Source: Clostridiales bacterium (GTDB lineage Bacteria > Bacillota > Clostridia > Christensenellales > UBA1242). From it: a stretch of DNA of 64,000 nt. Position 1 is the first letter of the stretch. Each line of letters starts with the position of its first letter. Location: the NCBI GenBank assembly GCA_918292005.1, contig CAKJZJ010000007.1:21411-85410 (forward strand), read 5' to 3'. A program made the position numbers and the translations under genes. Shown here in pieces: positions 53,184-64,000 of the stretch. The notes under the pieces were generated by a model that did no database searches, was not told the DNA's origin, and saw nothing but the letters and a program-made list of their open reading frames with translations.

Positions 53184-53190
53184 TAAAAAA

Positions 53191-53215
53191 GCACCCATGC
53201 TTGGGTGCCTTTTTT
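53191..53215 (+). terminator. Rho-independent terminator after tRNA-Arg
   Basis: Stem GCACCCA / TGGGTGC with a 4-nt loop, followed by T6. Confidence 0.7.
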
Positions 53216-53454
53216 ACCAACTCGGCGAACTCTTTCCCAAGTGTTCGCCACTAGCCCCTACAATGCCCATAAACACTAGCAAAAACGCTAGTGTTTTTTC
53301 TTAAGGTGTCAAGAAAATTTCAATTTTGACACCTTTGCCGCCTTAACTCCCATTTTTAATCATACTCGACTACAAAAAACTGTGGAAAATTGTGTGAATT
53401 TTTATAAAATTATTAAAAAAGATATTTTCAAACGATGATAAAAGATAAATAGTA

Positions 53455-53463
53455 TGCTATAAT
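53455..53463 (+). promoter_or_regulatory. Extended -10 element upstream of the helicase gene
   Basis: TGC-TATAAT lies 19 nt upstream of the ATG at 53482. Confidence 0.4.
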
Positions 53464-53481
53464 GAGTGTGGAGTAATTAAA

Positions 53482-56400
53482 ATGAATATTGGAGAAGTTG
53501 TATCAAAAGCAATAAAAGAAGGTAAATGGTTAAACATCTCATATATCAATAAAAACGATGAGAATACTTTTTATTGGGTTGCTATTAAGGATATTGATTT
53601 TAATAAAAAGACTTTTTATGTTTCTATGTTCAATGATAAAAAATCAATGAATACTTTTGATACGTGGATTTACTTTAACAATATTCAAAATGCAGAAGTT
53701 ATTGAGTTTTCATCGTATGAGAGACCGGATGAATTAATTAGTAAAATCGAAAAGAACTTAAATAAATGTGCATGGTTAAACTATGACCATTTTAATCATA
53801 ATGTTTTGAATTATTATGCAGAATGTAATATTTTGGACAATGATCCTGCACAAAAAGAATATGCAAGTATTCCTGGGATAGATTTGTCAATACTTCGCAA
53901 AAATAAAAAGTTCGAATTAAACGAAGAACAAATTAAAAGGATTATTTCAGACATATATCACTACGATATAAAAAATAATACAAACTCATATTACACACTT
54001 GCTATAAATAATTTTTCTATTGACGAAGGTAAAAATAAATTTGTTATTGCATATTATTGCCTTACATTTGATCCACAGCAAAAATCTTTAATACTTGATA
54101 AACATCTTAGGTTTAATCAAGCATTTATGGTTGATGGAAGAAGACATTCATTATTTAATTACATTAATATGGATACTGATTACTTTGCCAAAACTTTTGA
54201 ATCTAATTATAAAGAATATCAACAAATCATTCAAAGTAATTTAAGACCTGGCGAATATATAAATACAAGGCCGGATATAATGCTTATTCAGCGAGATGTG
54301 TCGATTGATTTATCAGAAACATATAGTGCAATTGAAGAAAGATATTTAACAAACAATTTAACTGTACCACTCAAATCTTTCTTTGGTAATATAACTAAGA
54401 AAAACAATTTGAGAAAGAAAGAGCCGTCATTGATTATATATGATAATCGAATTAACATAAACCAAATGCGTGTTTTGTATAACGCAATGAAATATCCAGT
54501 TACATATGTTCAAGGACCTCCAGGAACTGGGAAAACACAGACAATTATTAATGTTACTTTAAGTGCTTTTTATAATGATAAAACAATGTTAATTTGTTCA
54601 TCAAACAATAAACCTGTTGATGGAATAGTTGAAAAGCTTAAATTTGAATATAAAGGCGAGTTTGTAAATTTTCCTTATCTTAGACTTGGAAATTATGAAG
54701 ATGTGAAAAAAGCGACTTTAAGGATAAAAGAATTATACAACTACACGACCAACAAAACGCCTAAAGATGAGCTATTAAATAAAATAAAGGTTTCAACTGA
54801 TGATCATAATGCAAAACTTATTGAATTGTTAAATATTCAAGAAAAAAGGGTAGATATACAAAACTGCCTTGATAGTTCTAACAAATTAATAAAATCATTT
54901 GGAAATAATACAAGTAAAATTATAGATGTTGTTAAAGAGAAGATTTATCAACTTAAAGAAGACTTAAAGTCGTTACCAGAAGTATCTAATGATGATTTAA
55001 CGTCTTTATTCATACCATTAAATCAAAACTACCAACTCTCTCAATTTTTGTATTTCAAGTCTTTACAGTATATAAGCAAGCTTAAAAAACCTCGTTATTC
55101 AGAGCTTATACAAATATGTAGTATTGAAGATGATGATACAAGAGTAAATGATTTTAATAAATGGACACAGGAAGACGCCAATATGAAATTGCTTACAGAA
55201 GTGTTTCCAATCATTTTTTCTACAAACATATCTTCTAGACGGCTAGGTACACCGAATTTCATGTTTGATTTAGTTGTAATGGATGAAGCAGGTCAATGTA
55301 ATGTTGCGACTTCGCTTATCCCTATTACCAAGGCAGAATCGTTATTACTTGTTGGAGATCCGAACCAACTCAAACCCGTTATTATTCTGGAAGAAGATGT
55401 AAATACACAATTATTAGAAAAGTACAATATTCCAGAAAAGTATAATTACAAAGACCATTCAATTCTTGATGTTATGATTGAAAATGATAATATTTCAAAA
55501 TATATTCTTCTTGAGTATCATTATAGATGTGGAAGAAAGATTATAAATTTTTCCAATCAAAGATACTACAATAACTCCCTTAACTTGTCATATATTGCAA
55601 ATGAAGGCGATCTGCAATTATTGGATGTTAGAAATCAAAATGTAAAGCAAAAAAACGAAGCTTTTGATGAGGTGTGCGAAATTGTAGAATATATCAAAAG
55701 AAATGATATCCATAATGCATTTATAATAACACCTTTTGTAAATCAAAAAGAGTTGATGAATAGAATGCTAAAAGAAGCTAATATTACAGATGTCGATTGT
55801 GGAACAATTCATTCTTTGCAAGGGGCAGAAAGAGATACAATTATATTTTCTTCAGCTATCTCTCCTAAGACAAGTAAGAAGACTTTTGAATGGATCAAAG
55901 ACAATTATGAATTAATCAATGTTGCTGTAACAAGAGCAAAATCAAAATTAGTAATTGCTGCTGACACTGAAGTAGTTGATAAATTGTCCGATAAAAGTGA
56001 TGACTTATACAACTTGATACAATATGCAAAAAACAATGGTAACATAATTATTCCTGCAAATGAATCAATCAAATTAGAAATTGGCAAATCAAATGGAAGT
56101 GTAAATGAAGATGAGTTTTTCAAAACGGTATCACATTTTTGTTCTTGTCATAAAACTTTTGAAGCTGAAAGGAATGTTAAAATATCAAGGTTGTTGAAAA
56201 ATGAAAATGCAAACGACGGAATGGAATTTGATCTTGTTTTATATGAAAAGAATATGTTTGGCAAAAAACCGGTAATAGCATTTGAGGTTAATGGCGGAGA
56301 ACATTTTGGCGTATTGTCTAGAGAAAAATCTGACAGAAAGAAAATGGATATTTGCTCTAGACACGGTATTAAGTTGATTTTCATTCCAAATACATTTGTG

Positions 56401-61891: not shown

Positions 61892-62871
61892 TGGAAAAAA
61901 AATTAGAGGATTGTATGCCTAAGCTTATACAGGTTACAATGGATAATATCAATAATATTTCATATGAGGATATTGTAGCTGTAGTATATGCTAGTGGTGG
62001 TGCGATGGGAAATGGTGGGGAATTGACCATTGTGCAAAAAAGAAATACTACGACATTTTATACCACCAATTTAGTATATTCCGCTGATAAAACTTTGGTG
62101 GAAAAAATAACAAACACTTATTTTAAACCTTTTATAGAAGCGTTTAGAGATGAACAAATACCCGAATTTGATAGTTACGAATTGAAAAGTATAGACTGGA
62201 TAGAGATAATGATGGGATTTACAGGCAACTATATTTTTGTCAAAAAAAATTATTATCATAAATTCAAATTCGTTGTTGAAATGTTCCCTAATACTTATAT
62301 TTCCGATAAATATCGATTGGATAATTATCTGGACATATATGTGAACAGGTATTCAATATTATATTTGGCTTTTGAATATGATCTTACATATTACAGTGAA
62401 ATATATTATAAAGTAAAGCGTATGATTGGGTATTATTTCGTATCTAAAATGAAATTATATGATAAATTAACAGGTAAACCCATCCCAGCATCTTTATGCG
62501 ATGAAATTTATAAAGATATTGTGAGTAGATTTTCGGATTGTTGTGGTTCGACAACAACTCAGCTGAATAATCTGTCTATGTCAGATTTTGTAGCGTTTTT
62601 TAATCATGCAAAAACAAAAGATTTTTATTGCCAAATGTTGACGGCTAATAATTTCAATAATCTTTTCAACGATACGCCTCTAGATTCAGATATGTTGGTA
62701 GATATATCGGTAAAAGGCGAAAATTGTAAGAATGCTTTGGATATTGTTTATGATGTTATCAAAAATATTAATTTTGGTCGTAATAATGATGTGATATTTT
62801 TGATATCTCAAAACAAAAAATTGTATTTTAAATTTAGTATTAAATTGTTTTATGGTAAATATAATTCTTAA
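61891..62871 (+). CDS. Hypothetical protein (326 aa)
   Basis: The start overlaps the previous stop (TAATG), which implies translational coupling. No recognised motif. Confidence 0.55.
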   Translation: MEKKLEDCMPKLIQVTMDNINNISYEDIVAVVYASGGAMGNGGELTIVQKRNTTTFYTTNLVYSADKTLVEKITNTYFKPFIEAFRDEQIPEFDSYELKSIDWIEIMMGFTGNYIFVKKNYYHKFKFVVEMFPNTYISDKYRLDNYLDIYVNRYSILYLAFEYDLTYYSEIYYKVKRMIGYYFVSKMKLYDKLTGKPIPASLCDEIYKDIVSRFSDCCGSTTTQLNNLSMSDFVAFFNHAKTKDFYCQMLTANNFNNLFNDTPLDSDMLVDISVKGENCKNALDIVYDVIKNINFGRNNDVIFLISQNKKLYFKFSIKLFYGKYNS

Positions 62872-62907
62872 CATAAACAAAATTTACATTCTAAATAAAG
62901 GGAATTT

Positions 62908-63420
62908 ATGCAATACGAAATAAAACATTGTAGTGTATTAGAAGCAGAGACTGAGGCGATAGTTAATGCCGCTAATAAGTATCTAGAATGTGGTGGAAGT
63001 TTATGTGGTGCAATATTTGCAGCTGCAGGTGGTGAACAATTAGCAAAGGAATGCAGAAAATATGGATTTGTGGAAACAGGTTCGGCTGTGGTCACTCCAG
63101 GGTTTAAAACTGGTGCTAAATATATAATTCATGCTGTTGGTCCGAACATATGGCACAACAAGGATGATTGGCAAGAAAAATTGAAAGAAGTATATAATAA
63201 TGCTCTAGCTGTGGCAGATTTTAGAGGGGTAAAAAGTATTGCGTTGCCTTGTATATCTACCGGAGTATATTCGTGTCCATTAGAAGAAGCGACGCAAATA
63301 GCAATAGATGTTGTTAAAAATTTTAAGCCAAAATTTATTGAAAAGTGTCTATTTTGTTGCTACACTGCTGAAGAATATGAAGCATATTTACAAATAGAAA
63401 AAAGAATAAAATTGAGTTAG
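62908..63420 (+). CDS. Macro domain protein, paralog of 17571-18077
   Basis: AIVNAANKYLECGGSLCGAIFAAAG, GSAVVTPG, YIIHAVGPN and ALPCISTGVYSCP are present. It is collinear with the first macro ORF over its whole length, at roughly 55-60 percent identity by eye. Confidence 0.85.
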   Translation: MQYEIKHCSVLEAETEAIVNAANKYLECGGSLCGAIFAAAGGEQLAKECRKYGFVETGSAVVTPGFKTGAKYIIHAVGPNIWHNKDDWQEKLKEVYNNALAVADFRGVKSIALPCISTGVYSCPLEEATQIAIDVVKNFKPKFIEKCLFCCYTAEEYEAYLQIEKRIKLS

Positions 63421-63571
63421 TATTTCCCTTTTTCTTTGCATATTTCCAAGCATGTTTTGCACTACTATAGTCACCGCCTTTTGAAACTAGTCAAATAATT
63501 AACACTTTAACTTGAAAAAGTTAGAGTGTTATTTCATTCTCTCTTGACCAAGCGCACGTGTGAGTGCCAAA

Positions 63572-64000
63572 TTAAATTTCTTCAATGCCTATTTGTTTTA
63601 AATAGTTATAAGTTTTATCATAAAAATCGTTAGGTCTAGTTTTATCTTCTGGGTTACCTTCTGGAATATAAATAATCATACCTTGTCTAGCTCTTGTTAA
63701 TAATACTCTATAAGCATTTTTAAGATATAGCTTATTACTTTCATTATTTACTTTGTTCCACTTAGAACCATTGAATCTATTATACGTCCATTCGGTACCA
63801 TTATATCTATAATCCGCATCCCATGCTACAATAGACCAATCTAACTCTAAACCTTGCACATCAAATTCTGTAGCACAATCTTCTAAATAATAAGATGAGC
63901 GAACATTGTCTTTATCGTCTAGAAAATAGTTTGGTGCAGATAATTCGTTTTTTACAAAGATGCCAACCGGTTTTAATCTTAATGCGCCACTACTAGCCAA
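63572..64000 (-). CDS. C-terminal part of a DUF2075-type (Schlafen-like ATPase/helicase) protein, truncated by the window edge
   Basis: EFDVQGLELDWSIVAWDADYRY and NAYRVLLTRARQGMIIYIPEG match the conserved C-terminal block of DUF2075 proteins. Confidence 0.65.
   Translation of the reverse strand: MASSGALRLKPVGIFVKNELSAPNYFLDDKDNVRSSYYLEDCATEFDVQGLELDWSIVAWDADYRYNGTEWTYNRFNGSKWNKVNNESNKLYLKNAYRVLLTRARQGMIIYIPEGNPEDKTRPNDFYDKTYNYLKQIGIEEI

Follow-up and report, generated by a model that had tools for sequence, protein, structure and literature searches.

A 31-kb island of defence-type genes beside a tRNA-Arg gene of a gut Clostridia bacterium was probably built by serial integration and decay of tyrosine-integrase elements

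Base composition and codon usage change abruptly on the 3′ side of the tRNA-Arg(CCT) gene of an uncultured gut Clostridia bacterium with a small genome (assembly GCA_918292005.1, here G000; 1.206 Mb in a 19-contig draft). This raises the question of whether the DNA beyond the tRNA is one mobile element, the product of several arrivals, or not foreign at all. The window, meaning the whole stretch of 64,000 nucleotides that was analysed, covers positions 21,411 to 85,410 of a 167-kb contig (CAKJZJ010000007.1, here C7). A reading of the window by sequence alone, referred to below as the original prediction, had proposed a horizontally acquired island, its position on the 3′ side of this tRNA gene, and a content of defence-type genes, and each of these three points is borne out. 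The island, however, continues past the right edge of the window, and it is a mosaic of at least four segments rather than one element. We consider it very probable that the block is a composite defence island, now immobile, that arose through serial integration and decay of tyrosine-integrase elements. Positions beyond the window were read from two loci, L001 and L002, and are given here in window-equivalent coordinates (position x of L001 is 64,000 + x, and position x of L002 is 84,000 + x). Adding 21,410 to a window-equivalent coordinate gives the position on the contig.

The extent of the island follows from its composition. At about 53.2 kb, the GC content in 2-kb windows falls from 0.36–0.39 in the core (about 0.37) to 0.26–0.31 in the island (about 0.29). 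The tetranucleotide CTAG occurs 7.30 times per kb in positions 1–53183 versus 2.13 times in 53184–64000, whereas TTAA rises from 3.1 to 12.6 per kb and AGCT from 0.86 to 2.9 per kb. The shift in Leu codons away from CTA and toward TTA and CTT, as originally described, is likewise evident when counted (CTA from 40% to 11%, TTA from 14% to 45%, CTT from 8% to 17%). The examples that had been offered are also accurate, wherein CTAG is absent from 53461–54480 and occurs three times, at 9525, 9536, and 9560, in a short stretch of the core. The sliding-window and tetranucleotide profile that had been put forward as a check reveals a clear shift and a block without equal in the genome. Among genome-wide windows of 10.8 kb, 0.9% are equally low in CTAG and 1.5% equally low in GC, and none of 744 windows of 31 kb matches the full block for low GC or low CTAG. 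By tetranucleotide distance, this block is the largest atypical one in the G000 assembly. All 21 genes between 53482 and 83992 (window-equivalent) have a GC content of 0.24–0.36 and the island-type codon shift, and the genes flanking the island on both sides are core-type (GC 0.35–0.44, 5–11 CTAG per kb). The island therefore spans 31.0 kb, from window position 53,184 to window-equivalent position ~84,220 (C7:74,594–105,630), which supplies the right boundary that had been left open.

Two details of the earlier description require adjustment. The island is CTAG-poor relative to the core, but not relative to expectation: the ratio of observed to expected CTAG is 0.83 in the island and 2.2 in the core. 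Thus, the CTAG-rich core is the unusual partner, and the island is ordinary for its own base composition. Similarly, the shift had been placed directly after the tRNA terminator, which is correct at the scale of 53.2 kb but not for the first 300 bp (53184–53481), where three CTAG sites are retained. As separate observations on the core, positions 1–53183 are also poor in TTAA, AGCT, GGCC, and CGCG; the CTAG richness is shared by only one (G037) of 11 congeners whose tRNA-Arg(CCT) neighbourhood was profiled; and the core-type DNA at 25839–36608 (plus strand) is occupied by a single open reading frame (ORF) of 3,589 aa.

The evidence that the island was assembled at the tRNA gene comes from copies of the tRNA 3′ half, and from remnants of integrases, that recur along the block. 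These features are as follows, with positions above 64,000 being window-equivalent.

53109–53183, plus strand: intact tRNA-Arg(CCT) gene of 75 nt (ARAGORN; Rfam RF00005, 59.9 bits), the left anchor (attL side).
53144–53214, plus strand: left copy of a 70-bp direct repeat, which starts in the anticodon loop (TAAGGGG...) and takes in the tRNA 3′ end and the terminator hairpin.
53184–53481: noncoding arm, GC 0.34, three CTAG, with the terminator and three further inverted repeats.
56555–56700, plus strand: 3′ tail of a deleted tyrosine-integrase gene of the tRNA-Thr-element type, 94% identical in nucleotides to loci L250 and L251.
65,676–65,706, plus strand: relic of the T-arm, acceptor, and CCA of tRNA-Arg(CCT), congener-type allele.
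74,470–74,540 (L001 10470–10540), plus strand: right copy of the 70-bp repeat.
82,191–82,374: element arm, 70% identical to the relic-side arm of an element in the relative G033.
82,375–82,420, plus strand: 3′-half relic of a 77-nt-type tRNA-Arg(CCT), beginning at CTCCTAAG.
84,047–84,220, minus strand: integrase C-terminal stub of about 57 aa (...LRHTNITLQL...GHSKASTTSDFYSHF...), 91% identical in amino acids to an integrase of G038.
~84,235–84,262: hairpin, past which core-type DNA begins.

The original prediction saw no att repeat within the window. One copy does lie there, at the tRNA itself, and its partner sits beyond the window edge. The two copies are the same (53144–53184 equals 74470–74510, and 53186–53214 equals 74511–74539) but for one A in an A-run. 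In the relic at 65.7 kb, 23 of 23 T-arm nucleotides are identical to the tRNA-Arg(CCT) of the congener G005, and the acceptor end resembles those of G032 and G015. In total, three tRNA 3′-half relics are present on the same strand as the tRNA, which makes four att-type sites when the tRNA is counted. The fact that the relics are of three allele types points, under the standard geometry, to at least three element lineages.

The relics split the block into four segments, E1 (12.5 kb), E2 (8.8 kb), E3 (7.8 kb), and E4 (1.8 kb). E1 and E2 together form a 21.3-kb unit with the 70-bp repeat at both ends and no integrase inside. This arrangement suggests either a joint arrival of E1 and E2 or an attP common to E1 and E3. 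It also fits the definition of a cis-mobilizable element (CIME), which retains attL and attR and lacks integration genes. Within the arm that follows the tRNA, three inverted repeats at 53215–53345 (GGCGAAC...GTTCGCC, CACTAGC...GCTAGTG, and GGTGTCAA...TTGACACC) could be integrase arm sites or a small RNA. The arm (53184–53481) has no match in any fetched locus, and an Rfam scan found nothing besides the tRNA.

That no integrase is visible within the window, as originally reported, is accurate for intact genes only. By searching with integrases from relatives, we found the tail at 56,555–56,700 inside the window and the stub at 84,047–84,220 beyond it. The search past the window edge that had been recommended yielded the partner copy of the 70-bp repeat, two more relics, and the integrase stub. 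The stub at the right edge is cut off beside the hairpin. In L250 and L251, the counterpart of the tail forms the end of a gene, the called portion of which is an integrase C-terminus of 175 aa (LRHT...GH...Y), and the G000 version is interrupted by a stop codon and fused behind a helicase gene. The island consequently encodes no integrase of its own beyond this stub and tail, whereas integrase genes are present in its intact sister elements. G000 has just two Phage_integrase genes, on contigs C9 and C11, and no serine recombinase. Because G000 lacks an intact cognate integrase, the array is now fixed, and it could move only with an integrase supplied in trans. As a side observation, C9:29500–37000 is a second atypical block; it holds the only full-length large tyrosine integrase of G000 (464 aa), which adjoins tRNA-Thr(GGT) and is 50% identical to the integrase of L245, a locus from another gut Clostridia.

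Intact elements at the same tRNA gene in other genomes reveal the form of a complete unit. In G031, the order is tRNA-Arg(CCT) of 77 nt, KwaB-like gene, KwaA-like gene, 466-aa integrase, type I restriction–modification (R-M) system, 127-aa gene, PDC-S31, and relic, with the relic 18 kb downstream of the tRNA. Its KwaB- and KwaA-like proteins are 99% identical to those of G000. The two genomes share 97.1% nucleotide identity over 1,837 bp (82,375–84,211), a stretch with its left limit precisely at CTCCTAAG and its right limit at the truncation of the G000 integrase. Given that the core protein DegV is only 66% identical between these genomes, the element shared with G031 must have spread recently. 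G033 carries a 6-kb unit from tRNA to relic with an integrase, and G005 and G038 encode integrases of ~464 aa located 0.8 and 2.2 kb, respectively, 3′ of their own tRNA-Arg(CCT). Outside the family, the tRNA 3′ half recurs as an exact 37-nt sequence, in 68 metagenome contigs and 117 species genomes. These copies include 101 full tRNAs and 36 relics, wherein every relic begins with CTCCTAA and arm types recur. At 20 or more loci, an integrase of ~470 aa starts ~100–300 bp 3′ of the tRNA on the opposite strand, and many of these genes have decayed to fragments. One such locus, L093, is a complete 10-kb unit of tRNA, integrase, cargo, and relic. The intact sister elements of G031 (18 kb), G033 (6 kb), and L093 (10 kb) consist of an integrase and cargo only.

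From these observations we propose the following order of events. Tyrosine-integrase elements would recombine at a CTCCTAA core within the anticodon loop of tRNA-Arg(CCT), as judged from the identity boundaries. Each incoming element would bring its own tRNA 3′ half, and here also a terminator, which would leave the tRNA intact. Older elements, along with the 3′ half that had been in place, would thereby be displaced distally, and later deletions would strip the integration modules and join unrelated cargo. By the standard geometry, each relic would record the tRNA 3′ half of the element to its right. The anticodon loop is reportedly one of the classical sublocations of integrase crossover in tRNA genes, in a classification attributed to Williams in 2002. 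The island resembles that class in that relic identity starts in the anticodon loop, although the crossover here is placed by identity boundaries.

Cargo was named with PADLOC, Pfam, and NCBIfam models applied to ORFs of at least 100 aa, and all defence labels used here reflect homology to these models. By this measure, E1 contains a helicase–nuclease candidate, a 362-aa gene, AbiL, an operon with a macro domain, and PDC-S41; E2 contains a UvrD-like helicase and a Mokosh-like helicase operon; E3 contains a type III R-M system and orphan genes; and E4 contains KwaB-like and KwaA-like genes along with the integrase stub. The individual genes are listed here, again with window-equivalent positions above 64,000.

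53482–56484, plus strand: superfamily 1 (SF1) helicase, 1000 aa (Pfam AAA_11 7e-33, AAA_12 3e-18, DUF2726 0.005).
56747–57835, plus strand: 362-aa near-orphan with an RNDxMH motif.
58001–59323, plus strand: AbiLi, ABC-type ATPase (PADLOC AbiLi 4e-90; Pfam AAA_21 5e-25).
59323–59949, plus strand: AbiLii, RloB/Toprim-like (Pfam RloB 1.5e-31; PADLOC AbiLii 9.5e-22).
59967–60284, plus strand: 105-aa ORF following AbiLii, no family match.
60386–62871, plus strand: four orphan genes (120, 231, 132, and 326 aa) ahead of the macro gene.
62908–63420, plus strand: macro-domain protein, 170 aa (Pfam Macro 2.9e-34).
63,572–65,524 (ending at L001 1–1524), minus strand: PDC-S41, a DUF2075 SLFN-type helicase of 650 aa that crosses the window edge.
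~65,530–65,675, minus strand: 49-aa ORF stub abutting the relic.
65,767–68,247, minus strand: UvrD/GajB-like helicase, 826 aa.
69,069–69,416, plus strand: 115-aa gene.
69,428–71,938, plus strand: MkoA-like helicase, 836 aa.
71,898–73,307, plus strand: 469-aa gene.
73,313–74,455, plus strand: DEDD-exonuclease-like gene, 380 aa.
74,614–77,496, minus strand: type III Res, 960 aa (PADLOC REase_III 2.9e-28).
77,489–79,960, minus strand: type III Mod, 823 aa (PADLOC MTase_III 2.7e-173).
80,115–80,498, plus strand: 127-aa ORF, 90% identical in nucleotides to G031.
80,499–82,124, minus strand: 541-aa orphan.
82,506–83,462, plus strand: KwaB-like gene, 318 aa.
83,459–83,992, minus strand: KwaA-like gene, 177 aa.

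Three systems are complete by PADLOC within the 31 kb, and with four partial look-alikes they give the block the content of a defence island. The predicted ABC-ATPase/RloB pair corresponds to AbiLi and AbiLii, whose genes are adjacent with a one-base overlap at 59323, as in the definition of AbiL, and the pair is therefore a putative AbiL system. Mod and Res of the type III R-M system are likewise adjacent and their genes overlap. The third is PDC-S41, which matches Pfam SLFN-g3_helicase (5e-83) and, across residues 1–650, the PADLOC PDC-S41 model (1e-289). Its DUF2075 family and minus-strand location had been recognized earlier, but what had appeared to be a fragment is a full-length gene cut merely by the window edge. 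Presumably, the cargo modules act independently of one another in protecting against phage.

The look-alikes depart from the definitions of the systems they resemble. The 1000-aa protein, originally described as a helicase–nuclease fusion, is an SF1 helicase whose PADLOC matches (MkoC 1.5e-47, MkoA 1.7e-40) cover the helicase core only. The N-terminal 320 aa are without assignment, and the nuclease part is represented by a weak C-terminal match to the nuclease-like DUF2726 (0.005). No PLD domain, as found in Mokosh, is found in this protein, the MkoA-like helicase, or their neighbours, and the match of the MkoA-like helicase is likewise restricted to the helicase core. The 826-aa UvrD-like protein matches GajB (3e-41) but has no adjacent GajA, as Gabija would require. 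The kwaA- and kwaB-like genes are convergent, unlike those of Kiwa; KwaA is matched at 1.1e-16, and there is no PADLOC match for KwaB. The Pfam KwaB score of 26.1 lies below the cut-off of 26.3, and this match is absent for the 99%-identical copy of G031. The PADLOC and Pfam models added, beyond the window, the type III R-M system, a second Mokosh-like operon, the UvrD/GajB-like helicase, and the KwaA-like gene. Two further candidates did not hold. The 380-aa protein beside the right repeat was considered as a recombinase and rejected, given that it is DEDD-exonuclease-like, and Pfam gave no confirmation of a NUDIX label for the 49-aa stub.

Two modules in E1 have almost no known relatives. 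The 362-aa protein, which had been called HEPN-like, has three homologues in 5.8 billion proteins. A HEPN-type Rx4-6H motif (R207-N-D-x-M-H212) is indeed invariant in four of four family members, but the family and fold assignments found no match: no Pfam, NCBIfam, or PADLOC model matches, and no fold match was obtained at E ≤ 0.001. The AlphaFold2 (AF2) model has a predicted local distance difference test (pLDDT) score of 58, and its best PDB match (E 0.04) is to a ferredoxin-like N-domain, with no HEPN entry listed. In every context found (the island and L245–L251), a tyrosine integrase gene at the attR end of an element lies immediately ahead of this gene on the same strand (window 56747–57835; L245 10001–11050; L250 583–1671). 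This constant position suggests an element-tied role rather than random cargo.

The second module is the five-gene operon that, as predicted, ends in a macro-domain gene. Its four orphan genes have no Pfam, NCBIfam, or PADLOC family. The only homologue of the 231-aa protein is itself, and the 326-aa protein (61891–62871) has one close homologue. The N-domain of the latter (~140 aa; AF2 pLDDT 87–97 for residues 11–80) occurs in ~18 distant proteins, two of which are fused to ADP-ribosylglycohydrolase, and the 326-aa model has no PDB fold match at E ≤ 0.001. No DUF4433 or other ADP-ribosyltransferase (ART) family, as expected for DarTG, is found among the four partners of the macro gene. The operon may be an undescribed ADP-ribose-linked defence system. 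The macro protein is also 58% identical to a full-length paralogue at 17571–18077; the stretch at 16–20 kb that holds this paralogue is itself reduced in CTAG (5–9 per 2 kb) and in GC content (0.32–0.35) and has a high GC skew.

The same modules recur in other combinations elsewhere. In L245–L249, the E2 operon (115-aa gene, MkoA-like helicase, and 469-aa gene; 70% nucleotide identity between G000 and L245 over 4 kb) is found with a homologue of the 362-aa protein and a 459-aa integrase at tRNA-Thr(CGT). In L250, which is 94% identical to G000 across 56.5–57.9 kb, positions 1825–2841 encode a Fic-domain protein (HPFLDGNGR) where G000 has AbiL. The presence of the E2 operon and the 362-aa gene at tRNA-Thr, and of Fic in place of AbiL, indicates that cargo moves between element families and target tRNAs. 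PADLOC found no match in the cargo of L093 and L090, which are elements from other families, and only ABC-ATPase-like matches in L105; thus, defence cargo is not universal among elements at tRNA-Arg(CCT). Two related observations concern layout. Positions 3022–11290 of L245 form a compact island with the E2 operon, the integrase, and a 349-aa homologue, bounded by tRNA-Thr(CGT) and a disrupted tRNA-Thr relic, and the swap between AbiL and Fic falls right after a terminator common to G000 and L250.

Several points weigh against serial integration and decay in place. Variable presence of the island among strains of the species is presumptive, since the genomes available for comparison came from outside the species. 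Divergence and rearrangement in the 40 congeners are too great for this purpose: flank proteins in 30 relatives are 27–67% identical with no common neighbourhood, an 80-kb map against G037 has no synteny, and exact-protein look-ups of three flank genes returned no record. Moreover, a 47-kb stretch around the island, compared by blastn with 148 att-bearing contigs, matched nothing but the tRNA, which means that none of these contigs is conspecific. In three of the four segments, the position just 3′ of the tRNA or relic, at which sister elements retain their integrase, holds no remnant of the segment's own, and this would need either several clean deletions or the arrival of integrase-less segments inside larger composites. 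The relic order breaks the expectation that the newest copy lies next to the tRNA, since it is the middle relic that is identical to the host tRNA. The 5′ half of the resident tRNA is also an other-family allele, and a crossover in the anticodon loop alone is insufficient to account for it. Finally, the defence roles assigned to the cargo are predicted from homology, and several modules fail the definitions of the systems they resemble.

The alternative that survives best, although we consider it unlikely, is acquisition en bloc, wherein the whole 31 kb or the 21.3-kb E1+E2 unit was formed elsewhere and entered in one or two steps, such that the relics record a history that took place elsewhere. 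The 70-bp repeat brackets E1 and E2 as a unit and includes the terminator, as if the attP were already matched to this locus, the internal relic at 65.7 kb is a congener-type allele, and transfer of whole accretion composites is documented (PMC5704250). The segments nevertheless have different closest relatives (97% for E4 and 90% for the 127-aa gene, both with G031; 70% for the E3 arm with G033; 70% for E2 with L245; and 94% for 56.5–57.9 kb with L250), and the deletion scars within segments favour decay in place. This scenario is also a variant of serial integration and decay rather than a true alternative.

Less probable again is that a single large mobile element, such as a prophage, satellite, or conjugative element, decayed to leave most of the block. 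The tRNA site, the integrase stubs, and the atypical composition would suit such an origin. However, the Pfam, NCBIfam, and PADLOC scans of ORFs of at least 100 aa found no families for capsid, terminase, tail, replication initiator, relaxase, or type IV secretion, the att sequence has zero exact matches in 2.9 million viral contigs, and the intact sister elements carry nothing beyond an integrase and cargo. Slightly less probable still is an assembly or binning artefact, in which foreign low-GC DNA would have been joined at the tRNA or the 70-bp repeat to form a chimera. The 19-contig draft is apparently of the metagenome-assembled genome (MAG) type, and 70-bp repeats and a conserved tRNA invite mis-joins. 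Two precise joins would be required, though, and the same 167-kb contig continues as core-type DNA over 53 kb before the block and ~61 kb after it. In addition, the outer junctions are meaningful (an intact tRNA and an integrase stub) and are mirrored in G031. The reading as a native AT-rich region, inherited vertically and set apart in composition by some function, has the lack of observed empty sites as its sole argument. It is effectively refuted by the tRNA relics of three allele types, the integrase stubs, the 97% nucleotide identity to G031 against 66% identity in a core protein, and the codon-usage shift in every gene.

If serial integration and decay formed the island, the resident tRNA poses a further problem. 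All 75 of its nucleotides are identical to an allele found in more than 100 contigs and genomes from other families of the order and from many genera, some of them with 46–59% GC. By comparison, its identity to the tRNA-Arg(CCT) of the 40 congeners does not exceed 86%, and in 13 further genomes of its family no match passes the detection threshold. Close relatives have a mixture of 75-nt and 77-nt types. In contrast, a control tRNA-Glu(CTC) (1148–1222) follows the phylogeny, being 99–100% identical in G033, G031, and G041 and present in 41 of 41 congeners. No flanks are shared between G000 and the genomes with the identical allele, and no relic of a native 77-nt-type 5′ half is present anywhere in the G000 genome. 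Crossover in the anticodon loop would explain the foreign 3′ half but not the foreign 5′ half. We therefore raise, tentatively and as the less favoured possibility, that the resident tRNA-Arg(CCT) gene was itself imported, with elements overwriting the tRNA and spreading a “universal” allele together with its terminator.

The island clearly exemplifies a process that has been reported before in other bacteria. The same process of island building has been described for the tycheposon islands of Prochlorococcus (Hackl et al., 10.1101/2020.12.28.424599), which also reside beside tRNA genes in a small, streamlined genome and contain tyrosine-recombinase elements flanked by partial tRNAs. There too, newcomers push older elements distally, integrase fragments and extra partial tRNAs are scattered, and the cargo includes defence genes. 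G000 belongs to another phylum and habitat, its likeness to these islands is drawn from architecture, no replication or packaging modules are seen in its sister elements, and its cargo is almost wholly of the defence type. In the tandem accretion seen among integrative and conjugative elements (ICEs), integrative and mobilizable elements (IMEs), and CIMEs of the ICESt1/ICESt3 family (Pavlovic 2004; Bellanger 2011; reviewed in PMC5704250), members likewise decay to att-flanked, integrase-less elements, and composite arrays can move as a unit (PMC5704250). The G000 members, in contrast, have no conjugation or mobilization genes and target a tRNA anticodon loop, instead of the 3′ end of a protein gene; cis-mobilization is putative here. 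In Escherichia coli, defence systems are found on mobile islands at tRNA hotspots, many of which have no mobility gene beyond an integrase (Hochhauser et al. 2023, PMC10121019). Occupancy of those hotspots was mapped over 1,351 conspecific genomes, compared with a single genome here, and the G000 island is more decayed, with stubs only, and has an explicit architecture of multiple relics.

These findings indicate that the tRNA-seeded island building known from marine cyanobacteria and streptococcal ICE/IME arrays is also at work in uncultured gut Clostridia with very small genomes, and that tRNA-Arg(CCT) is a landing site common to several families of the order. For annotation, the gain is a set of exact boundaries, a segment map, and the separation of three recognizable systems from look-alikes that fall short of their definitions. 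The 362-aa RNDxMH protein, the five-gene macro operon, and the helicase operon are candidate new systems that travel with defence cargo. The anomaly of the tRNA allele provides a case in which the rewriting of an attachment site by the mobile elements that use it can be tested. If elements do so, the attachment site would be homogenized across families, and distant hosts would be kept permissive for further defence-carrying elements.

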